Positions 1,294-62,136 of a stretch of DNA of 64,000 nucleotides are shown here, in pieces. The translations under genes and the position numbers were made by a program. The stretch is from the UHGV virus genome UHGV-0066004; one strand, 5' to 3'. Every line of letters begins with the position of its first letter. The stretch's first letter is position 1. This DNA comes from a virus. The notes below the pieces were generated by a model. It searched no databases, was not told the DNA's origin, and saw only the letters and a program-made list of their open reading frames with translations.

Positions 1294-2895
1294 TCAACGT
1301 CTAAGCCCCTCATACGGGTTTCCTCTCACTAAATCTGTGTGAGCACCCATTGATGGTGGCTTGAATAATTTAACTTCGTTAAGACTGTTGAAAGCATCAC
1401 TGGTAGCATCCACTTGGTCATCTTTAGTTTTGCCGTCACCACAAAAACCTTCAAGTTCTTGAAAGTAAGCTTCATTCCAACTACCTCTCAAGACTTTTAC
1501 AAGTCCAGCTTCAGAAGCAGCAGAAAATCCCGCAAAGCGGGTAACTTTATCTTTATTTGTTGGTTTGGCTCTTGCTCGATAACCTTTCTCGGCAAGTTTC
1601 CTGATGAGGGATGTTGCGTAGGATTTACCAGCAGCGCCTGGGTCTTGAGGGATAAAAATACCAGTTCGCTTACCGTCACTTTCAGCAGTCAAATTAATTT
1701 GTGTTTCGACTCCAGAGGGTCTATCTCTAAATCTTACTACATCAATGATATAATAGCAACCGTCTTTTTTAGATTTACCCATCTTAACACCTGCTGTCCA
1801 GTCTGGATTAGGGTTAATCTCAGATGGTAAAGTTGCTGCTAAGTCCCATGCTCTAACATCAAATACATCTTCTGGGAGTGAATCAACAACCTCACACCAT
1901 TGCCTTTGCCAATAGTTTGAACCTTCTGCACGAGCCTTCCAGTTACCGAAACGAAGTCTTGCAACGTTTACAGGGGTGTTGTTTTCCAACTTACCACGGT
2001 ACTTAGGTTCTAAGAAGTCAAGGATTGGGTTATCATCAATCGTACCAGAGATAAAGGTGTATGTTTGAGGAATCTCAAGAGGGAACATTTCAAGAATCTT
2101 GTCTCTCTCCCAATCAGAAACCATCACACCATCGTTCATTACATACCAACGAATACGACCACATTTTTCAGGGTCTGGATAGCCTTCTTCATCTAAGAAT
2201 GGCTCTACCCAATCGTAAATAAAGTGGTCTCTGTCTGGGTTCATGGAAATCTTCATGTATGAATCACCTTCAGCACCAGAACGTAGACGGGTTTGTAGGT
2301 ATGAAATCTGTGAAGCAGAGAAGTGTGTACCTTCGTCAAAGTAAATAGCTGAGTATTCAATACCCTGATGACCTTCAGCGTGCTTTTCAAGTTCTAGATA
2401 GGTAAACTTGATAGTTGCCCCAGAAGGGAATGTGATAGTCATCTTCTGCTCGTGAGGAACCCCACCAAACTTACCAAATAGTTTCTTTGCAGCAGGCCAC
2501 AAACCACCTTGTAACTGTGTTGTATTTCGACGGAAATATACAGCGTTATAATTAGGGTCGTCAATAAACCTTAAAGAGTCCATTAACAATGCAGCAGTCT
2601 TACCAGCACCCGCAGCACCACCATAGAGAACCAAGTCAGCATTAGTATTTAAAAAGACCTCTTGAGAACCCGGCTGAGGGGCTACATAGTTCTTATCAGT
2701 CATCAATTTGAAGATAAGTCTAACTTGGTCTGGTGTGTATCTTAATAAAGTCAGAATTTGAGTTGGAAGGAATTTAGAGGGGTCTTTACCGAATGATTTG
2801 ATAATTTCTTTTACTTCATCAGAAAGCCCCAACTCTCCAGCTAGGACTTTCCTAACATCTTCCACTCGCTTCTGCTTAACAGCATTTAAGTCCAT
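1294..2895 (-). CDS. terL: terminase large subunit
   Basis: 538-aa ORF with Walker A P-loop (GGAAGAGKT) and C-terminal nuclease-like region; start moved to ATG at 2895 (MDLNAV) preceded by GGAGGTG, since the track start appears to be a TTG. Confidence 0.85.
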   Translation of the reverse strand: MDLNAVKQKRVEDVRKVLAGELGLSDEVKEIIKSFGKDPSKFLPTQILTLLRYTPDQVRLIFKLMTDKNYVAPQPGSQEVFLNTNADLVLYGGAAGAGKTAALLMDSLRFIDDPNYNAVYFRRNTTQLQGGLWPAAKKLFGKFGGVPHEQKMTITFPSGATIKFTYLELEKHAEGHQGIEYSAIYFDEGTHFSASQISYLQTRLRSGAEGDSYMKISMNPDRDHFIYDWVEPFLDEEGYPDPEKCGRIRWYVMNDGVMVSDWERDKILEMFPLEIPQTYTFISGTIDDNPILDFLEPKYRGKLENNTPVNVARLRFGNWKARAEGSNYWQRQWCEVVDSLPEDVFDVRAWDLAATLPSEINPNPDWTAGVKMGKSKKDGCYYIIDVVRFRDRPSGVETQINLTAESDGKRTGIFIPQDPGAAGKSYATSLIRKLAEKGYRARAKPTNKDKVTRFAGFSAASEAGLVKVLRGSWNEAYFQELEGFCGDGKTKDDQVDATSDAFNSLNEVKLFKPPSMGAHTDLVRGNPYEGLRR

Positions 2896-11780: not shown

Positions 11781-12152
11781 ATGAAGGCTAAGAGTGCAAA
11801 AGACTTTTATTGCTTCCTACAATCCTATATCAATTCCGTGAAAAATGGTGAAAGATACAATCTTAATGATGTTATCCCAACACCTTTGACATGGAGACTC
11901 AGTAAATGGCCTGAAGAAGATATTACACCAACAAGAGAACAACGCACCTACAAACCTGAAATCAACATTCCAGATTCTGAGAATCTATTATATCCAATGT
12001 TCCATATTGTTGGTCTTGGAAGATTCCTTATGGATATCCAGTATGTAATTGGTAAAGGTTATAAGGTTAAAGGCATTGTTGTTGGTGATGTATCTCCGCA
12101 TCACAAAGGTTATTTTAGACTAAACGCACATTTAGAGGCTAAAAAGAAATGA
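11781..12152 (+). CDS. hypothetical protein, paralog of N-terminal domain of the Ig-repeat protein
   Basis: Roughly 110-aa region alignable by eye with N-terminus of the next gene (shared FMDLQY-type motif, W-P-E-x-D-I). Confidence 0.5.
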   Translation: MKAKSAKDFYCFLQSYINSVKNGERYNLNDVIPTPLTWRLSKWPEEDITPTREQRTYKPEINIPDSENLLYPMFHIVGLGRFLMDIQYVIGKGYKVKGIVVGDVSPHHKGYFRLNAHLEAKKK

Positions 12153-13282
12153 TTAAAGCAAAGACTTACCCAGACTTCAAAGAGTTTGTGAAGGGCTTCA
12201 TTGCAAATGTAAAGGCTGGTAAGAGATATGATTTTAGAACATATCAAGAGGCTATTTTACCACTCACCTATAGTTCATATTGGCCTGAAGCTGATATTGC
12301 AGAAGTTGAGAAGTTTGACTACAAACCAGACTACAAAGTTCCATTTAGTGATGAGTTGCTTTACAGCGTTGGTGCTCAAATGAGAACGTCTGACTTCTTC
12401 ATGGACTTACAATATGCAATTATCAATGGTAAAGACGTTGATACAGTTTATTGTGAATGGCTGGCAAGAGTTAAACCGTTCTCAATGTTGAATGCTAAGT
12501 TGAAGGATGCTATCAAGCCACCATCAATCACTCAGCAACCAACCAATCAAACAGTAAATGAAGGGGGTACACTTACCCTAATCGTTATTGCAACTAATGC
12601 CACTGGATATCAATGGAAAAAGGATGGTGAGGACATCCCTAGTGCCAATTCTGCAACTTACACAAAACAGTCAGTAGCACCTTCTGACGCTGGTTCATAC
12701 ACTTGTGTTGTATCTGGAGAGGGTGGAACAAGTGTTACCTCAGATGCAGCAACAGTGACTGTGAACGCACTACCTGTGATTACACAACAACCTTCTAGCC
12801 AGACCATCAATGAGGGTGGAAACATCAGCTTGGAAGTGACTGCAACGGGTGCAACGGGTTACCAGTGGAAGAAAGATGGCTCTGACATTCCTTCAGCGAC
12901 AAATGCTACCTATAGCAAGTCTGGTGCTCTGCCAGCAGATGCAGGTTCATACACTTGCGTTGTAACAGGTGCAGGTGGTTCTGTTACTTCTAGCCCTGCA
13001 ACAGTTACTGTGAATGCACTTCCGGTAATCACTCAGCAACCAACCAATCAAGAAATCACTGAAGGTGAGACCTTAACACTGAATGTTGTGGCAACAGGTG
13101 CGACAGGTTATCAGTGGAAGAAAGGGGAGGAAGACATCCTCGATGCAACTACTGCAACTTACACCAAAGAAGGTGCAACCACTGCTGATGCAGGAAGCTA
13201 CACCTGTGTAGTGACTGGCGCAGGTGGCTCTGTAACATCTAATGCGGCAACAGTTACAGTTAACCCAGCAGGGGAGGCATAA
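12149..13282 (+). CDS. protein with three tandem Ig-like domains
   Basis: Three ~83-aa repeats with I-set-like signature (YQWKKDG...ATYT...AGSYTCVV); nucleotide-level tandem repeats. Confidence 0.65.
   Translation: MIKAKTYPDFKEFVKGFIANVKAGKRYDFRTYQEAILPLTYSSYWPEADIAEVEKFDYKPDYKVPFSDELLYSVGAQMRTSDFFMDLQYAIINGKDVDTVYCEWLARVKPFSMLNAKLKDAIKPPSITQQPTNQTVNEGGTLTLIVIATNATGYQWKKDGEDIPSANSATYTKQSVAPSDAGSYTCVVSGEGGTSVTSDAATVTVNALPVITQQPSSQTINEGGNISLEVTATGATGYQWKKDGSDIPSATNATYSKSGALPADAGSYTCVVTGAGGSVTSSPATVTVNALPVITQQPTNQEITEGETLTLNVVATGATGYQWKKGEEDILDATTATYTKEGATTADAGSYTCVVTGAGGSVTSNAATVTVNPAGEA
12520..13272 (+). repeat. three tandem ~250-bp coding repeats (Ig-like modules)
   Basis: Near-identical stretches such as atcactcagcaaccaaccaatcaa recur at a ~250-bp period. 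Confidence 0.7.
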
Positions 13283-13746
13283 TGCAACTCTCAAGAAAAG
13301 GTTTAGAAGCTATTAAGTTCTTTGAAGGTCTTAAGCTGGAGGCTTACGAAGATTCTGCTGGAATCCCTACAATTGGGTATGGGACAATCCGTATTGCTGG
13401 TAAACCTGTTAAGATGGGTATGAGAATCACGGCTGAACAAGCTGAACAGTATCTTCTCGCAGATGTTGAAAAGTTCGTTGCAGCAGTGAACAAAGCCATC
13501 AAGGTTCCAACTTCTCAGAACGAGTTTGATGCACTTGTAAGTGAAACATACAACATTGGCATCACAGCTATGCAGGACTCTACATTTATCAAGCGCCACA
13601 ACGATGGTAATAAGGTCGGTTGTGCAGAAGCTATGCAATGGTGGAACAAGGTTACAGTCAAAGGTAAGAAGGTCACTTCAAACGGCCTGAAAAACAGACG
13701 TAGAATGGAAGCTGACATTTATCTTGACAGTGTATATCCAAAGTAA
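13282..13746 (+). CDS. endolysin, T4-lysozyme-like (GH24)
   Basis: N-terminal FEGLKLEAYEDSAGIPTIGYG matches GH24 catalytic Glu region. Confidence 0.75.
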   Translation: MQLSRKGLEAIKFFEGLKLEAYEDSAGIPTIGYGTIRIAGKPVKMGMRITAEQAEQYLLADVEKFVAAVNKAIKVPTSQNEFDALVSETYNIGITAMQDSTFIKRHNDGNKVGCAEAMQWWNKVTVKGKKVTSNGLKNRRRMEADIYLDSVYPK

Positions 13747-26297: not shown

Positions 26298-27083
26298 TTA
26301 GTTCTTTGCGTCTAAGAAGGTAACTTCTGGTGAAGAGAAGATTGCCTCGATATCCTCATCAGTTCTTGCATAGATATAAGCTTCTGCATCACTACCAAAT
26401 GTTACAGCAATTCTGTGATTGCTCTTTGACAGGTGGGTAACTAGAGCGTTACTTAGAGACATCTTTTCAACCGGAGGGTTACTTTGATGTATCTTACCTT
26501 TTCTTCGTCTGAAGAGGGTAACTGCGTTATCTGTGAACACTGCTACACCTGCAAAGTATTCTGGTTCACAGTAGTTCTTCCAACCTGAGCGTAACTTGTG
26601 GTACATCTCGCCTTCATAGACATACAGATAAACATCTACACTCTTCATCACCTGATTGATGATAACTGTGATGGCTTGAGGGTCAAGTCCACCGATACCT
26701 GCACCAATCATAGGTAAACCAACTTTCTTCAACTGATTAACTTCACAGTATCTGTTAAGCTGTTTCAAAGATGACTCTAAAGCACTGTATCGGGCATCTT
26801 TACCAGTCTTAAGCTGAGTGTAAAGGTTAGCTATACGACCTTGTTTTAAGCGTGCTACAGAGAAATTACCTAGTAAATTCTCACAGGGTTTGTGACCTAT
26901 ACCACCTGCATAGAGATAAACTTCTGTATCGGTCTCATATGCTTTTGGGTAAAGTTTAGAAATCTTGTCAGCGATACCTGCGCCCATTAGGTTCATGCAG
27001 TTACAACCATGACCAATGATGTCAAACTTACCTTTATCAAATGCAGCAAAGATATCACCATTGATGATTTTTACAATACCCAT
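26298..27083 (-). CDS. macro-domain protein (ADP-ribose binding or hydrolase) with C-terminal extension
   Basis: N-terminal NGDIF...DIIGHGCNCMNLMGAGIADKI and LPMIGAGIGGL match macro-domain glycine-rich motifs. Confidence 0.6.
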   Translation of the reverse strand: MGIVKIINGDIFAAFDKGKFDIIGHGCNCMNLMGAGIADKISKLYPKAYETDTEVYLYAGGIGHKPCENLLGNFSVARLKQGRIANLYTQLKTGKDARYSALESSLKQLNRYCEVNQLKKVGLPMIGAGIGGLDPQAITVIINQVMKSVDVYLYVYEGEMYHKLRSGWKNYCEPEYFAGVAVFTDNAVTLFRRRKGKIHQSNPPVEKMSLSNALVTHLSKSNHRIAVTFGSDAEAYIYARTDEDIEAIFSSPEVTFLDAKN

Positions 27084-27284
27084 TTAGCATCTCTCCCAAG
27101 ATTCTTTATCTTCTGAAGGTTTTACACGTTGCCCCTCATGGTCTACCCAGATGCACCCACAACCTTCACAGATTACTGGCATTGCATAACCAGCTTTAAA
27201 ATCATCTTCAGTGATAAGACCTTTTAAGTCACCTGTATCACGTCCGAACATTTCGATAGAACAGTCTTTACAGAAGTCAGCCAT
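27084..27284 (-). CDS. small Cys-rich (zinc-binding?) protein
   Basis: Start set to MADFCKDCS; CxxC and CEGCGC motifs. Confidence 0.4.
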   Translation of the reverse strand: MADFCKDCSIEMFGRDTGDLKGLITEDDFKAGYAMPVICEGCGCIWVDHEGQRVKPSEDKESWERC

Positions 27285-27504
27285 GAATAATTGCCTCTTG
27301 AATGATGATACCTTTACCACAACGACTTTTAAAGTCTTCCAATGGTTCAGAGATGAAGCCACGTAAGCAGTCAGTGAATACTAAGTTCTTCCTGTAAGCT
27401 ATCACATCATTTGCTGTAAATGGGATGACCTCATTTCGTCCAATGAATACTGCTGACCTTATAAGTTTTCGTGTCTTTTTATCTCTGGCTAGTATTACTT
27501 TCAT
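27277..27504 (-). CDS. hypothetical protein
   Basis: ORF in track. Confidence 0.4.
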   Translation of the reverse strand: MKVILARDKKTRKLIRSAVFIGRNEVIPFTANDVIAYRKNLVFTDCLRGFISEPLEDFKSRCGKGIIIQEAIIHG

Positions 27505-27805
27505 AGTTTACCTTCTCAGTTAGTTCATATAAATCAACATGCTCAATACTGTCAATGTTGATATCAATCTTTTTGAAACGCTCCATCACTTCGTTATCAG
27601 TCATCCATATCAGACACCAATGATTCTGGATGGATTCTTCAAGAAGGTCAACACAATCTTTAAAGGTTTTTGTATCACTTCTTGTTCCTACTACTGCGAT
27701 TGTTCCATATAGCCACTTACCATTGCCATAAGATACTTGTGCTACGCCAACTTCTTTACCTTTCTCATAGTAAACGGCTACAAAGTCTCTTCCATTAATC
27801 TGCAT
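27479..27805 (-). CDS. hypothetical protein
   Basis: ORF in track. Confidence 0.45.
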   Translation of the reverse strand: MQINGRDFVAVYYEKGKEVGVAQVSYGNGKWLYGTIAVVGTRSDTKTFKDCVDLLEESIQNHWCLIWMTDNEVMERFKKIDINIDSIEHVDLYELTEKVNYESNTSQR

Positions 27806-27807
27806 AG

Positions 27808-28077
27808 TTACTTCCTCGTTTTAAGAACTGCTAAGATTTCTTTAGAATCTGGTAAGAACCATGTGTAGTGATTCTCTTTGATTTCTGGATGAGTGTCAAC
27901 CTTTATTTTGCACTCTTTACCAACATGTTTAAGCTGTGCTGTGACACCTTGCATAAAGATATGGCACATCACATTATCCATAATGGTTGGTGAGAAATCA
28001 ATTCGCATATAAGTCTCTTTTGGTCGTGGTAACAGTAAGTATCCTTCTACGTAAAAAGTATCTTGATTCTCTGTCAT
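27808..28077 (-). CDS. hypothetical protein
   Basis: ORF in track. Confidence 0.45.
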   Translation of the reverse strand: MTENQDTFYVEGYLLLPRPKETYMRIDFSPTIMDNVMCHIFMQGVTAQLKHVGKECKIKVDTHPEIKENHYTWFLPDSKEILAVLKTRK

Positions 28078-28343
28078 TGCTGCTTATTCCCTAATAAAAT
28101 CATGTCAATAAGGTTGTTAGCTTTGATTGTGCACTGGTAAAAGCCGTCACGATAGAACTCAAGGGCTGCTGCTACATCGCTGCCTGTGTTGCCTTTGATG
28201 ATATACCGTGATTCTTCTTGGGTGTACTTATCACCCTCACTTACTTGGGAGTTTTTGAATGTACTGCTCACTTTGTTCGTTGAACACCCTGACATAGTTA
28301 TCAGTAACACAAACATTATAAAACTCTGGCTTAGTTTTTTCAT
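28074..28343 (-). CDS. putative lipoprotein
   Basis: Signal peptide with lipobox (ITMSGC). Confidence 0.5.
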   Translation of the reverse strand: MKKLSQSFIMFVLLITMSGCSTNKVSSTFKNSQVSEGDKYTQEESRYIIKGNTGSDVAAALEFYRDGFYQCTIKANNLIDMILLGNKQQ

Positions 28344-28584
28344 ATGTTAGTACCTCTTTTGTATGCTTATTCTTAGCAAGCACATCTTTCAAATCATTTT
28401 TGTAATTGGTGCTGAGTGTGGCTAAACCTTCCTGATAAGCATCTTTAGCAACACTTATTAGTTTCTCATTATTTAGCTCAGTTTCAGCAACTTGATAGTC
28501 TCTGTAAGAGTATCCTCCCCAGACACCTGCACCAACTAAGAAAACAATTATGAAAGTAGCTTGACAGAACTCTTTAAATGTCAT
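28237..28584 (-). CDS. membrane-anchored protein (3' end overlaps lipoprotein gene)
   Basis: N-terminal TM helix; 107-nt out-of-frame overlap with 28074..28343 is unusual. Confidence 0.4.
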   Translation of the reverse strand: MTFKEFCQATFIIVFLVGAGVWGGYSYRDYQVAETELNNEKLISVAKDAYQEGLATLSTNYKNDLKDVLAKNKHTKEVLTYEKTKPEFYNVCVTDNYVRVFNEQSEQYIQKLPSK

Positions 28585-28603
28585 TTAACAATCTCCTAAA
28601 ATG

Positions 28604-28624
28604 AAAAAGGCTCCCGAAGGAGCC
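28604..28624 (-). terminator. intrinsic terminator with UUCG tetraloop
   Basis: Minus strand GGCTCC-UUCG-GGAGCC followed by U-run. Confidence 0.6.
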
Positions 28625-28636
28625 TGTATCTTAACC

Positions 28637-29101
28637 TTAACCGAGGACTTTAGCAAGGATATTCGCAGCCATCGAAGAAGCTTTTGCAGCAGCAACTACG
28701 CCAGCTTTGACAGTGCTATCCTTAATAGCAGATACCGTTGCAGCATCAGTAAAGAGATAAGTGATTGTTTTAGAACCACTTGTAAAGGAAAGCATAAGAG
28801 TAGTTTCCAGATTGAAAGAGCGATACGGAGCACCTTCTTTAACGATACCTTCAGCACCTAACTCTGAAGCCTTGCCCATATCATAGATAGTCATCAGGTT
28901 TTCTTTGTGTGCTGTGGTTGAGCCAGAACCTTTTACGTGTTTCTTAACATTCAAAAGAGCACGATACTCTCGGATGTTACCGTCTGCTTTTACGTTGACA
29001 GCACGGAAAATTTTACCCTCAAAGTTGCTCTTGATAATGTTACGAACTACTTCAGATTTGTTTGCCGTAACGTCCAGTGCTACCGTAATGATATTGTTCA
29101 T
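28637..29101 (-). CDS. hypothetical protein
   Basis: 154-aa ORF. Confidence 0.5.
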   Translation of the reverse strand: MNNIITVALDVTANKSEVVRNIIKSNFEGKIFRAVNVKADGNIREYRALLNVKKHVKGSGSTTAHKENLMTIYDMGKASELGAEGIVKEGAPYRSFNLETTLMLSFTSGSKTITYLFTDAATVSAIKDSTVKAGVVAAAKASSMAANILAKVLG

Positions 29102-29111
29102 AAGTTTTCTC

Positions 29112-29807
29112 TCAATGTTTAACTAACATGGTTTTGATGTGTGGAAGTATTCTGTTCACCTTCTGCACATTCTTCTCTGTGTCTTCTATAAAACATACTA
29201 TATTAAAGTAAGGCAGAATACAAGACTGAATCATCCTCACTTTCAAACTTTCTGCACTTATAGAGTTAGTCCCAAAACCACGCATAAAAAGCATGTAGTC
29301 ATGCTCTGTGTTATGCCTTAAAAACATCTCAGTAGGTATTCTCTGAGATTCACCTCTCGCTGTCAAGAGTCCAATGGCAGCATGATTAGCAATTGCATCA
29401 ATAATACTAAAGACATACGTTGGTTTTGCTCTTACAGAGTCAAGAAGATTAGTGTACTGTGAGAATGACCCATCAGTCAATTCCGTTGAGCAATCTTCGT
29501 GATTAAAATTTGTAAGAACACCATCAATATCTGCTAAGATGAGGTTACCTTTTTCTACAAGGTCTTTATTGACTATGACTAAGCTATCACGACTTACACC
29601 TATAGTTTGTCCAGTCTCTTTATCTACAACATTCACAATTGGCTCTGATGTGTGGAACTCTTCGAGTGAACATACAACTTCTCTTGCAGTGTCTTCAAAA
29701 TCCCTACACTGTTCTGGAGTCCATACACAGGAATCAAGACCTAACTCATGAGGATGTAAGTCGTAAGCATGACACAGTACTTCATCAGACTTTTTTAATT
29801 TTTTCAT
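29112..29807 (-). CDS. HAD-superfamily hydrolase (putative nucleotidase or phosphatase)
   Basis: LILADIDGVLTNF matches HAD motif I (DxDGV). Confidence 0.45.
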   Translation of the reverse strand: MKKLKKSDEVLCHAYDLHPHELGLDSCVWTPEQCRDFEDTAREVVCSLEEFHTSEPIVNVVDKETGQTIGVSRDSLVIVNKDLVEKGNLILADIDGVLTNFNHEDCSTELTDGSFSQYTNLLDSVRAKPTYVFSIIDAIANHAAIGLLTARGESQRIPTEMFLRHNTEHDYMLFMRGFGTNSISAESLKVRMIQSCILPYFNIVCFIEDTEKNVQKVNRILPHIKTMLVKH

Positions 29808-30333
29808 GGTTTACCTTAGAAATGTTTATTGCAAATTCACATTGAGCAATGACTTTCATGTTGTTATAGACATCTTGAGAATATTTCTTAGCTTTAGGGA
29901 TTTTGTACGAATACCCAGCATTATATGATGCTAAAACTTTTTGTAAAGTCTTCTTTGACTTTGGCTGACCATGCACCTTTGTCCAAAACTCAAGCTCTTT
30001 GTGAGTTTCCTTCGCAGCATAGTCAAAGTCTTTTAAGAGTTTCTTTTTAGCCACATTAGGACTAATTTTGTTACGCTTTACAACAGTCTTCAAGTGATTC
30101 TGGAAGATACCATAATCATGTGTCTTTTTATTCTCTACCTTCAGACCTAACTCTGACTCTTGTAAGGCTATAGCAGCTAGAGTGATACCCCAACCTTTAC
30201 CCATGTTATTCTCACCATACTGGTAAGCTTTTAACATGTTTACTTTTTGGCTAATTGATAGCTCTGGGCAGTCAACTGCATAAGATAAGTGTGCTGTAAA
30301 CATTAAGCACAAACCTAGAATCAATTTCTTCAT
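29785..30333 (-). CDS. secreted lysozyme or lytic transglycosylase-like protein
   Basis: N-terminal signal peptide; AIALQESELG...DYGIFQ resembles SLT-domain catalytic region. Confidence 0.4.
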   Translation of the reverse strand: MKKLILGLCLMFTAHLSYAVDCPELSISQKVNMLKAYQYGENNMGKGWGITLAAIALQESELGLKVENKKTHDYGIFQNHLKTVVKRNKISPNVAKKKLLKDFDYAAKETHKELEFWTKVHGQPKSKKTLQKVLASYNAGYSYKIPKAKKYSQDVYNNMKVIAQCEFAINISKVNHEKIKKV

Positions 30334-30433
30334 TGGTTCTCCTGTTTAGTTTATCGTGACAACAATTATACAGCACTCTGCACAAAATACAAATAAAAAA
30401 GGCCGCCGAAGCAGCCTTTTAAGAAATTACTTA

Positions 30434-31543
30434 TTAGATTTCACGTTTACGTTGGGAGATTAGTTCACCAGCAGTGCCAACGATGACATGCAAAGCTTCA
30501 GTCTTGCCATCCCATTCTTTCAGCACTTTACGTTGATTATCAACGATTGCTGCAACTTCATAACGAGACGAACGCATCTTCATATCGTTGTAATCAGTTG
30601 GAACAGATACAACATCTCGTGGATGGACACGAACCTTCAGGATTGTATCACCTGAGAAGCAACGAACATAATCCCAAGCACCAACGTGAAGACCCTGAGA
30701 GCAAGTCACGTTACGGTTATTATCAACCATCCAACGTGGCATTTCTACAATGTTACCCAAATCATTAGGTACTCTGTAGGTGTGGGAGTCAACCAGCTTG
30801 CCTTCATGAGTAGAGACTTTCTTCCAACCAATGATGTAGCCTTCTTCATCAATTTCAACATCAAGGTGAGATACGAATCCCCAAAGTTGTTCTACAGAGT
30901 CTTTAGATGGGTTTTCCATCAGTTTTTCGAAGAACATCACAAGGCGTTCAAAACCCTTATCTCCAGTCTTCATCATGTGAAGAATACGGTCAACCAGAGT
31001 AGAACGCATCTCAACAGCACCGTAGAATAACTTGTCACCTTTGATGGTGATAGCACCCTGAGTGAAGTTTTCGATAGACTTACGAATGTTCATCAGTTCG
31101 AAAGCTTTCTTATACTCACCGGATACAACAGCCATCACGATTTCTTTGTAGTTCGGATGGGTAGATTCAACGATTTCAGAATCTGCACCGAAAGTCATGA
31201 TAACAGAGTCGCCAGTAATCATGTACTCAATCTGGTTGCCATTCTGCATAGCTTCATGCAGTTTATTTACCGGAGCTTTCTGTACAGGCTCTTTAACAAC
31301 CTTTTCAACTGGTTTGTCAGCTTTCTTTTTAACTGATTTAGCAACTTGCTTCAAAGTCTTCGTAGCTGGTTTAGAAGCTACCTTTTTCTTACCTTTTAAG
31401 GTTGCTTCATGACGCTCTACAGCACGACCAACTGAACGGGTTGAAGTATTGAACTTCTGTGCAATAGCTGTTTTAGTCAGCTTACCTTCTTTAACCAGTT
31501 CGTAAATTTCTGCGTCAATCTGTGCTTTAGTTTTAGTAGTCAT
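30434..31543 (-). CDS. rIIB-like protein (tentative)
   Basis: 369-aa ORF immediately downstream of rIIA-like gene; assignment mostly by synteny. Confidence 0.35.
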   Translation of the reverse strand: MTTKTKAQIDAEIYELVKEGKLTKTAIAQKFNTSTRSVGRAVERHEATLKGKKKVASKPATKTLKQVAKSVKKKADKPVEKVVKEPVQKAPVNKLHEAMQNGNQIEYMITGDSVIMTFGADSEIVESTHPNYKEIVMAVVSGEYKKAFELMNIRKSIENFTQGAITIKGDKLFYGAVEMRSTLVDRILHMMKTGDKGFERLVMFFEKLMENPSKDSVEQLWGFVSHLDVEIDEEGYIIGWKKVSTHEGKLVDSHTYRVPNDLGNIVEMPRWMVDNNRNVTCSQGLHVGAWDYVRCFSGDTILKVRVHPRDVVSVPTDYNDMKMRSSRYEVAAIVDNQRKVLKEWDGKTEALHVIVGTAGELISQRKREI

Positions 31544-60368: not shown

Positions 60369-60626
60369 GTGAACAATAAGGTTAAGAGTTGTGTGAAAGC
60401 AATGGTTGCACTTGGAGTAATTTTTCTGGCTGGCTGCAACCCATCTTATGAAAACAAAGATGCTTCTTACAGCCTCCCTCCAGAGATGCAAGACTGCAAA
60501 ATCTACAAACTCAATGGTGATGCTATAAGCAGAGATATTGTTGTTGTCAGATGCCCAAACTCTCAAACAACAACATCTTATAGCTATGGCAAAAATGGTC
60601 AATCACATACTACGGTTATTGAGTGA
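60369..60626 (+). CDS. putative lipoprotein (GTG start)
   Basis: Signal peptide with lipobox LAGC; GAGAGGT SD upstream of GTG. Confidence 0.5.
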   Translation: MNNKVKSCVKAMVALGVIFLAGCNPSYENKDASYSLPPEMQDCKIYKLNGDAISRDIVVVRCPNSQTTTSYSYGKNGQSHTTVIE

Positions 60627-60636
60627 GGTTTTCACG

Positions 60637-60843
60637 ATGGAAGTATTAGTAAACTATATCTATCGTTATGATGTTGTTCACTCCACTACAACGGTAGCTC
60701 AACGTAATCCAATCGTCCCACGAGAAGGTGAGTTGGTTCGCATTGAGGATTGGACTTACACTGTGGAAAGCATCATTCATAAGTTTGATGTTGCTGGTGA
60801 TGTTCAAGTTATTGACGTAGAAATTGGTGGCAAGAGGAAATGA
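60637..60843 (+). CDS. hypothetical protein
   Basis: Start set to ATG after upstream stop (MEVLVNY). Confidence 0.4.
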   Translation: MEVLVNYIYRYDVVHSTTTVAQRNPIVPREGELVRIEDWTYTVESIIHKFDVAGDVQVIDVEIGGKRK

Positions 60844-61031
60844 ACAAAGAAGATAAGCATAAAAATGCTGTACGAACTCCTGATGGAAAGATTCAGTCCT
60901 TCGTCCTGACAGTTGGTGGAAAGCCATTTCGTTGCCACTGCGGAGCAAACTGTTTTCATAAACCGGATAAAAATGACTTAGAGCTTTACGCATGTAATGC
61001 TTGCAACACTTGGTATCACTCAGAGGAATAA
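60840..61031 (+). CDS. small zinc-finger protein
   Basis: 63 aa with CHCG...CNACN Cys/His cluster. Confidence 0.45.
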   Translation: MNKEDKHKNAVRTPDGKIQSFVLTVGGKPFRCHCGANCFHKPDKNDLELYACNACNTWYHSEE

Positions 61032-61032
61032 A

Positions 61033-62136
61033 ATGACAATCCTATACAAACAAAATAAAGATGGCTCTTTCAACGTCTGGTCATGCGTTGCTGTAGGTGA
61101 CAAAGTTATTACAACCTATGGTAAAGAAAATGGCAAGATGATGTTTGAAGAGTATACAGCAGAACCTAAAAACATCGGTAAAAAGAATGAGCGTAACGCT
61201 GAACAGCAAGCTCTCTTTGAAGTTGCTGCTAAGTATAAAAAGCAAGTTGACCGTAAAGGTTATGCTTACACAAAAGAGTCTGCACAGAATACTGAGAAGG
61301 TAGGTGTACAGCTTGCTCATGATGCTGCAAAGGTTAGTCATGCGAAGTACCTGAAGTTCCCTGCTGATGCTCAACCAAAACTTGATGGTGTCCGTTGTAG
61401 AATTTCAAGACACTTGAGCATCGGTAGTGTATTTACAGCATACTCTCGTGAGAATACTGTTTATAAAATTCCTACTGAGCTAATACCTGACATTATGGCA
61501 ATGTTAAGGCTCCACAAAGATGTTGATGAATTTGATGGTGAGATTTATGCTCATGGGCAGGACTTAGAAGATATTGTCTCCATGATTAAAAATGAAGACA
61601 ATCCTGACCGACATCTACTCAAGTTTTACTGGTACGATATCTGTGACAGTACTAAGACGTGGCCTGAGCGTAGAGATATTATTGAGACTTCACCATTGAA
61701 TGACTTTAGAGACGGCTGTAAAGTTGTTCCTGTTAAATCTCGTCGTGTAAATTCTTGGGAAGAGTTTGATGAAGCTCATGATAAGTGGGTTGAAGCTAAG
61801 TTTGAAGGTGCAATGTACCGTTCAATCTCTGAAGACTCCTTCTATGAGTGTTGTCACCGTTCATACTTCTTGATTAAACACAAGAAGATGCACACTGAAG
61901 AGTTTAAAGTGACTGGTGTCAAGACCGATAAACGTGGTCATGGTAAGTTCGTTGTAGAGACTCTTCCTAACGTCTTTGTAGATGTCTCATGGAAAACTAC
62001 ACACGAGAAGAAACAGTATCTTGCTGAACACCCTGAAGAGTTTATCGGGAAACCTTTAACGGTTCAGTTCCAGAAGATGACTCGTAAGGGTTCTTTACAG
62101 TTCCCTGTTGGTCTCGTTATTAGGGATTATGAATAA
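61033..62136 (+). CDS. ATP-dependent DNA ligase
   Basis: Adenylation motif I KLDGVRC; start set to ATG after GAGGAA SD. Confidence 0.8.
   Translation: MTILYKQNKDGSFNVWSCVAVGDKVITTYGKENGKMMFEEYTAEPKNIGKKNERNAEQQALFEVAAKYKKQVDRKGYAYTKESAQNTEKVGVQLAHDAAKVSHAKYLKFPADAQPKLDGVRCRISRHLSIGSVFTAYSRENTVYKIPTELIPDIMAMLRLHKDVDEFDGEIYAHGQDLEDIVSMIKNEDNPDRHLLKFYWYDICDSTKTWPERRDIIETSPLNDFRDGCKVVPVKSRRVNSWEEFDEAHDKWVEAKFEGAMYRSISEDSFYECCHRSYFLIKHKKMHTEEFKVTGVKTDKRGHGKFVVETLPNVFVDVSWKTTHEKKQYLAEHPEEFIGKPLTVQFQKMTRKGSLQFPVGLVIRDYE

Follow-up and report, generated by a model that had tools for sequence, protein, structure and literature searches.

Two overlapping minus-strand genes at 28074..28343 and 28237..28584 of the virus genome UHGV-0066004 very probably encode the two-component spanin of a Felix O1-like myophage, and are a genuine pair of overlapping genes. 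The whole stretch of DNA analysed (64,000 nt, the window) belongs to a Felixounavirus, of a phage type that infects E. coli and Salmonella, and its bases 27000-31000 are 98% identical to genomes such as that of Escherichia phage ekra. The upstream gene (28237..28584, minus strand, 115 aa) is the putative inner-membrane component (i-spanin), identified from its ORF, a match to phrog_1152, orthology with Felix O1 p014 and the annotation of ekra and Shigella phage JK55. The downstream gene (28074..28343, minus strand, 89-aa precursor) is the putative outer-membrane lipoprotein component (o-spanin), identified from its ORF, matches to phrog_4180 and phrog_456 and orthology with Felix O1 p015. The ekra and JK55 records label the two ORFs i-spanin and o-spanin.

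Both ORFs were confirmed from the ORF list and the sequence. They share bases 28237..28343 on the minus strand (107 nt), where the lipoprotein ORF lies in the +1 frame relative to the upstream gene, (28584-28343) mod 3 being 1. Read in one frame, the shared segment gives the last 35 codons and the stop of i-spanin; read in the +1 frame, it gives the signal peptide of o-spanin and ~16 residues at the N-terminus of its mature part. The o-spanin gene then extends 163 nt past the end of i-spanin, and its stop shares an ATGA junction with the ATG of the next gene. The 107-nt out-of-frame overlap described in the sequence-only reading thus holds at these coordinates, and is conserved, with selection on both frames, across genera. 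That reading offered three explanations for it, namely a frameshift, a mis-called start or a genuinely overlapping gene pair. The last of these stands, given the ORF layout, the signals, the conservation and the constraint seen on both frames, and the same evidence sets aside the other two, as the o-frame has a TAA upstream of its ATG, an SD and a conserved signal peptide. The overlap was also called unusual. However, overlapped genes make up 228 of the 528 two-component systems surveyed by Kongari et al. 2018 (PMC6139136), in which the Felix O1 orthologues are tabulated with 107 nt in common. The 107-nt overlap is thus an ordinary case of the "overlapped" architecture, which is standard among spanins, and is already catalogued.

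Signals and predicted topology

The i-spanin begins with MTFKEFCQATFIIVFLVGAGVWGG and has one hydrophobic segment in all, a TM segment at about residues 6-25 (Kyte-Doolittle maximum 2.0 at residues 6-22). Outside residues 6-22 it is hydrophilic. The predicted topology is that expected of an i-spanin, with a single N-terminal TMD followed by a periplasmic domain; the Felix O1 orthologue is tabulated with a 27-aa TMD region and an 88-aa periplasmic domain (PMC6139136). A conserved cysteine, Cys92, is predicted to be periplasmic. In profile searches the protein matches phrog_1152 "Rz-like spanin" with an E value of 8e-42. An SD (AGGAG, 28593..28597, minus strand), found in the sequence and also listed for Felix O1 p014, lies 8 nt 5' of the start ATG at 28584.

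The o-spanin signal reads MKKLSQSFIMFVLLITMSG, with predicted cleavage before CSTNK, giving a 19-aa signal peptide and a mature protein of 70 aa. It consists of a K-K n-region, a hydrophobic core and a T-M-S-G lipobox cleaved before the Cys, with Ser at +2. The signal passes a PROSITE-like lipoprotein rule, its lipobox, invariant Cys and lack of Asp at +2 are those of an outer-membrane lipoprotein, and the Cys and signal are kept in all relatives examined. When the six frames of the window were screened with this rule (988 start sites, ORFs of 50 aa or more), only two genes passed, 28343..28074 and 60369..60626, together with one antisense noise ORF. Both genes that had been read as lipoprotein genes (28074-28343 and 60369-60626) therefore do carry lipobox signals. 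The o-spanin has one further conserved cysteine (Cys71) and a conserved C-terminal motif, LEFYRDGFYQC..NNLID. It matches the unnamed phrog_4180 with an E value of 1e-49, and phrog_456 "Rz-like spanin" weakly (2e-3). Its start, ATG 28343, is preceded at 9 nt by an SD (AAGAGG, 28353..28358, minus strand) that was read in the sequence, is kept by relatives and is also recorded for Felix O1 p015. Two codons 5' of this ATG the o-frame is closed by a TAA (28349..28347), and an A6 run is present at the o-frame start. The mature protein is without proline. In an AF2 model of low confidence (pLDDT 45) it is disordered over residues 20-53 and helical over residues 54-84.

Catalogued orthologues and comparison with other spanins

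Three architectures of two-component spanins, embedded, overlapped and separated, are distinguished by Kongari et al. 2018 (PMC6139136), and Felix O1, FO1a and UAB_Phi87 are placed there under "overlapped". In the same tables (PMC6139136) the Felix O1 pair p014/p015 carries the SpaninDB family label "JH2" and is listed as overlapped in the +1 frame by 107 nt. The i-spanin p014 is given as 348 nt and 115 aa with its 88-aa periplasmic domain, and the o-spanin p015 as 89 aa with a 19-aa signal, a TMSG lipobox and a mature part of 70 aa that begins with CST. Their counterparts in the window are identical to them at 113/115 and 87/89 positions. Lengths, frame, overlap, SDs and the TMSG lipobox with its Cys are the same, and the pairs differ in nothing other than Q40E and V55A in i-spanin, and N26S and S37G in o-spanin.

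LysB/LysC of phage P2 is the prototype of the overlapped class, and there too the o-spanin start lies within the 3' region of the i-spanin gene, from where the o-spanin frame (+1) continues past the i-spanin stop (PMC6139136). No sequence similarity to the window pair is detectable, so the two belong to different spanin sequence families. They also differ in setting, since LysB/LysC lies within a lysis cassette, whereas the window pair is isolated from holin and endolysin.

Like the window pair, lambda Rz/Rz1 consists of a type II inner-membrane protein and an outer-membrane lipoprotein encoded in the +1 frame, with periplasmic cysteines. It is an embedded two-component spanin and the experimentally characterised paradigm. 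The presumed mechanism would be common to both, a complex that spans the periplasm and fuses the membranes after the wall has been degraded. However, Rz1 is wholly embedded in Rz, whereas the window o-spanin runs 163 nt beyond i-spanin. Rz1 has 40 aa with 10 prolines (PMC6139136), in contrast to the 70-aa, proline-free mature o-spanin of the window with its predicted C-terminal helix. Pfam and NCBIfam scans of both spanin proteins returned only sub-threshold noise, the lambda Rz family included. Thus, neither protein belongs by sequence to the lambda Rz/Rz1 family (Pfam Phage_lysis and relatives), and PHROG "Rz-like spanin" groups alone match. No coiled coil is predicted for i-spanin in the Kongari tables (PMC6139136). 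The lack of a Pfam Rz match, the proline-free o-spanin, the lack of an i-spanin coiled coil and the uninformative o-spanin model together weaken the analogy with lambda. The window pair, as judged from its sequence, appears to work like Rz/Rz1 yet to lie outside that sequence family.

No experimental work on the spanin family of the window was found in the literature searched, and the spanin function is predicted from the gene architecture, the sequence signals and a catalogue built on homology. Beyond the proline-free o-spanin with its predicted C-terminal helix, the pair shows nothing novel. The discovery value is small, as an overlapped spanin pair with the same 107-nt overlap had already been tabulated for Felix O1.

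Constraint on both reading frames

Substitutions were compared over the colinear 511-nt region between the window and Suspvirus SUSP2, Mooglevirus Mordin and 3HA14. In the segment that codes for i-spanin only (nt 1-241) there are 45-54 differences (rate 0.19-0.22), 26-31 of which fall at third positions of the i-frame. The segment that codes for o-spanin only (nt 349-508) has 35-43 differences (rate 0.22-0.27), with 25-28 at third positions of the o-frame. The overlap (nt 242-348) has just 12-14 differences (rate 0.11-0.13), spread evenly over all codon positions. The substitution rate is therefore roughly halved in the overlap, at 11-13% versus 19-27% in the single-coding flanks, and codon periodicity is gone. 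This lowered rate and lost periodicity mark 28237..28343 as a dual-coding segment. The pattern fits simultaneous constraint on two frames, as would be expected if both are coding. From this evidence both frames appear to be independently translated, and both are under purifying selection.

The arrangement is shared with four other genera (Mooglevirus, Suspvirus, Kolesnikvirus and Kuravirus). The +1 overlap is 107 nt long in Mooglevirus and Suspvirus, 137 nt in Erwinia phage Ep030 (Kolesnikvirus) and 116 nt in podophage 172-1 (Kuravirus). Ep030 and 172-1 are distant relatives, with i-spanins 28-36% and o-spanins 29-34% identical to those of the window (pairwise E 1e-14 and 3e-12). The genes of the window pair are thus on the same strand and overlapped, one of the arrangements (embedded, overlapping or adjacent) in which spanin genes are found. 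Every relative keeps the lipobox Cys, with the K/R n-region and hydrophobic core before it, and also one further Cys per protein, Cys92 in i-spanin and Cys71 in o-spanin, down to ~30% identity. Across relatives the o-spanin C-terminal motif takes the form LE(F/W/Y)Y(R/Q)D..(Y/F/T).C...N.L(I/L). The i-frame stop, the o-frame start and the two-ORF layout are kept in 7/7 diverged relatives examined. This conservation rejects a sequencing artefact, a frameshift fusion and a shorter o-frame start.

Alternative readings of the overlap and of the first lipoprotein

Certain small phage lipoproteins block receptors, and the sequence-only reading had suggested superinfection exclusion by receptor masking for the 28074-28343 product. 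The lipoprotein would then be a factor like T5 Llp or Cor, and its overlap with the upstream gene would be incidental. Llp and Cor are indeed small phage-encoded lipoproteins, as are both of those in the window, and the block that holds the gene also carries rIIA and rIIB, with holin and endolysin not adjacent. However, the receptor blockers are without an overlapped membrane-protein partner, whereas the 28074-28343 lipoprotein has an obligatory one. In Ounavirinae and in unrelated podophages it is always +1-overlapped with a single-TMD periplasmic protein, the arrangement by which spanins are recognised. The catalogue lists it as the o-spanin of Felix O1. It also has the weak match to phrog_456 "Rz-like spanin", and shares with its partner the presence of a conserved Cys. 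Receptor masking is thus unsupported, and very improbable, for this gene. Its product is best read as the o-spanin partner of the upstream membrane protein, with a role in lysis.

A mis-called start, with true o-frame initiation at Met17 (28295), would yield a 73-aa product and a 59-nt overlap. This is how the GenBank records of ekra and JK55 call the o-spanin (222 nt), and the 73-aa form makes up the largest protein cluster (P0021, 303 member sequences). Such a product, starting "MSGC...", would be without a signal peptide and so could not be a lipoprotein, and an SD is absent before Met17, whereas AAGAGG precedes ATG 28343. The n-region and hydrophobic core that the short form would lack are kept before the Cys in all relatives, down to 29% identity, and the long start is used by Mordin, 3HA14 and Kongari 2018. 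Initiation at Met17 is therefore highly unlikely, and ATG 28343 is preferred as the o-spanin start.

That a programmed ribosomal frameshift or a sequencing error joins the two frames into one fusion protein is scarcely conceivable, for although the frames overlap out of register and an A6 run lies at the o-frame start, a sequencing error would not recur in 7/7 diverged relatives that keep both ORFs, the TAA shuts the o-frame two codons before its ATG, a lipoprotein signal functions at an N-terminus only, and passage from the i-frame to the o-frame requires a +1 shift, for which no known signal was seen by eye.

Proposed lysis mechanism

Membrane localisation, complex formation and a role in membrane fusion may be proposed for the pair by analogy with lambda. 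The i-spanin would be a small inner-membrane protein of type II topology, with a single TM helix at its N-terminus and a mostly helical periplasmic domain. Translation of the o-spanin would begin within the i-spanin gene, from a separate SD and an ATG in the +1 frame. Following the lambda Rz/Rz1 paradigm (PMC6139136), signal peptidase II would cut the o-spanin precursor before Cys20, which would be lipidated, and the mature lipoprotein would be carried by the Lol system to the outer membrane, into its inner leaflet; this sorting is predicted because the +2 residue is Ser and not Asp. The two proteins would bind via their periplasmic C-terminal regions, and homotypic disulfides at Cys92 and Cys71 probably stabilise the complex. 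Both of these conserved residues are predicted to be periplasmic cysteines available for intermolecular disulfides, and they fit the observation that disulfides are a recurring theme among spanins (PMC6139136). The complex would bridge the periplasm, passing through the meshes of the peptidoglycan. After holin triggering and degradation of the wall by the endolysin (13282..13746), the complexes would be freed and the inner and outer membranes would fuse, removing the last barrier to lysis.

Genomic context

With its dsDNA genome, its Gram-negative host, a holin and an endolysin, the phage offers the setting that a spanin calls for. The holin is annotated in ekra and lies outside the window. 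The putative endolysin gene (13282..13746, plus strand, 154 aa) was assigned from its ORF, the annotation of its ekra counterpart (ekra_112, "putative lysin") and a T4/P22-type lysozyme motif, EG..AY.D..G..TIGYG, recognised by eye. It is ~14.5 kb from the spanins and on the opposite strand. Directly upstream of it, 12149-13282 (plus strand) encodes a 377-aa protein, "putative tail protein" in ekra, with three tandem ~90-aa repeats of Ig-like look (…QQP.NQT.NEGG.L.L.V.ATGATGYQWKKDG.DIP.A..ATY.K…DAGSYTCVV…).

The leftward block that holds the spanin genes is long. It begins with rIIA and rIIB, followed by the genes for a secreted SLT-like protein and for polynucleotide kinase, one hypothetical gene, a terminator-like hairpin (28625..28608), the i-spanin/o-spanin pair and small ORFs. 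The spanin genes thus lie outside any lysis cassette and follow a terminator-like hairpin in an rIIA/rIIB/polynucleotide kinase block, which counts against the spanin reading. Lysis genes of Felix O1-like phages are scattered (PMC4319497).

The hairpin (AGGCTCC-TTCG-GGAGCCT followed by a T-tract, about 28600..28625, minus strand) was found by a consensus scan, and a terminator is annotated at the same position in Citrobacter phage Mordin. It is a strong terminator-like structure only ~10 nt 5' of the i-spanin SD. With such a hairpin just upstream, spanin expression must need read-through or an unrecognised promoter.

Two genes upstream of the spanins, 29785-30333 (minus strand) encodes a 182-aa protein with a Sec-type signal peptide, MKKLILGLCLMFTAHLSYA, cleaved before VD. 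The protein has a sub-threshold match to SLT lytic transglycosylases (E 1.2e-3), falls in phrog_600 (unknown function) and is annotated as "putative lysin" in relatives. Its gene overlaps that of polynucleotide kinase by 23 nt. From these features the gene could encode a protein, other than the main endolysin, that is secreted and acts on murein.

Annotation of the spanin locus in relatives

Embedded and overlapped o-spanins are often missed or mis-started by gene callers, and wrong o-spanin starts are a common annotation error, with 64 cases listed (PMC6139136). Errors of this kind explain the 73-aa "MSGC..." form, which is called from Met17 in ekra and JK55 (L001/L002) and is dominant in the protein database. 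In SUSP2 (L004, 1742-2011) the o-spanin is unannotated and its 89-aa ORF is intact, and in vB_Si_DR094 it is reportedly omitted too. In the Escherichia podophage 172-1 (L006, NC_028903, 1679-1939) the annotated start of ORF53, at "MPLPTNL", lies 87 nt 3' of the true signal-peptide start MRKLNQFFIMSALVMSMSAC.

A different arrangement is seen in Escherichia phage Bas86 (L007, PQ850622, 1480-2517), where an HNH endonuclease gene (1953..2303) splits the spanin locus exactly in the i/o overlap. The i-spanin of Bas86 is joined from two pieces in GenBank, in the manner of an intron. Piece 1 runs to its own stop at 1821 (ending ...GLFNERQQQAAEALKLKN), and piece 2 repeats GLFNERQQQAAN. The start of the o-spanin, ATG 2251 (MLTKKKQKSCLVILLASSLMAC), falls in the 3'-terminal part of the HNH gene. 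The inserted DNA may be a genuine intron; alternatively, its arrival may have changed the spanin from the overlapped to the separated type.

The practical value of the window lies in annotation. Many Felixounavirus entries in GenBank and in metagenome collections mis-start or omit the o-spanin, for which the correct start is the SD-preceded ATG 28343. By-products of the analysis are corrected start codons, and a pointer to a broad uncharacterised lipoprotein family, phrog_902.

A second lipoprotein gene

The other lipoprotein gene of the window (60369..60626, plus strand), identified from its lipobox and its match to phrog_902, encodes 85 aa from GTG 60369 or 77 aa from GTG 60393. Its signal reads VIFLAG with predicted cleavage before C, GAGAGG lies upstream of the gene, and the mature part has 62 aa. 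It lies outside the spanin system. The match to phrog_902 (unknown function) has an E value of 3e-18, and 106 homologues were found in a profile search. With tblastn, matches were found in 572 phage records, including those of Vibrio Demerecviridae, Acinetobacter phages, Vequintavirinae and jumbo phages. The lipid-attachment Cys23, D42-C43, R61-C62-P63 and T67 are invariant in the family.

In comparison with ekra, 10/16 substitutions in the mature part fall at third positions of the lipoprotein frame, as do 3/3 of those where the mechanically extended downstream ORF overlaps it. This bias indicates that the next gene starts at ATG 60638, and that the second lipoprotein is real though unannotated in ekra. 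In that annotation the gene caller had carried the following gene across the lipoprotein ORF, which was lost as a result. The next gene (60538-60843, plus strand; L009 2673-2975) is annotated in ekra from an upstream TTG, and so overlaps the lipoprotein ORF. GAGG is present upstream of ATG 60638 and, together with the substitution pattern, points to 60638 as the real start.

Pfam and NCBIfam scans of the second lipoprotein returned sub-threshold noise only. A precomputed PF16225 tag on its homologues was irreproducible with the current Pfam-A, no paper on it was found, and it was discarded. An AF2 model built from a 51-sequence alignment has a pLDDT of 63 and a pTM of 0.36. A Foldseek search of the PDB with this model gave nothing below E = 1.6, and no PDB sequence was matched significantly in a profile search.

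The gene has DNA polymerase, HNH endonuclease and ligase genes as neighbours, and no tail fibre genes. In ekra, Pectobacterium CB7, Vibrio 70E35.6 and Serratia BF it has no shared partner gene nearby, only small hypothetical genes. The protein resembles receptor blockers of the T5 Llp and Cor type in its size and in having two conserved extra cysteines. However, it has no match by sequence to solved structures and no fold match with the low-confidence model, and neither similarity to Llp or Cor nor linkage to a receptor-binding protein was found.

The phrog_902 family as a whole consists of lipoproteins with mature parts of ~60 residues and an invariant DC...RCP. Their genes, found in virulent phages of Enterobacteria, Vibrio (T5-like Demerecviridae) and Acinetobacter and in jumbo phages, lie in every case among small genes without a known function. 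A tentative and rather unlikely suggestion is that the family is a widespread envelope-acting factor, involved for example in superinfection exclusion or envelope remodelling, with a target common to Gammaproteobacteria.

Further downstream, 60840-61031 (plus strand) is a 63-aa Cys-rich ORF that is annotated as "DNA ligase" in ekra and overlaps by 35 nt the start of the gene for a 379-aa ATP-dependent DNA ligase (60997-62136, plus strand). This ORF could be a split or separately encoded zinc-finger module.
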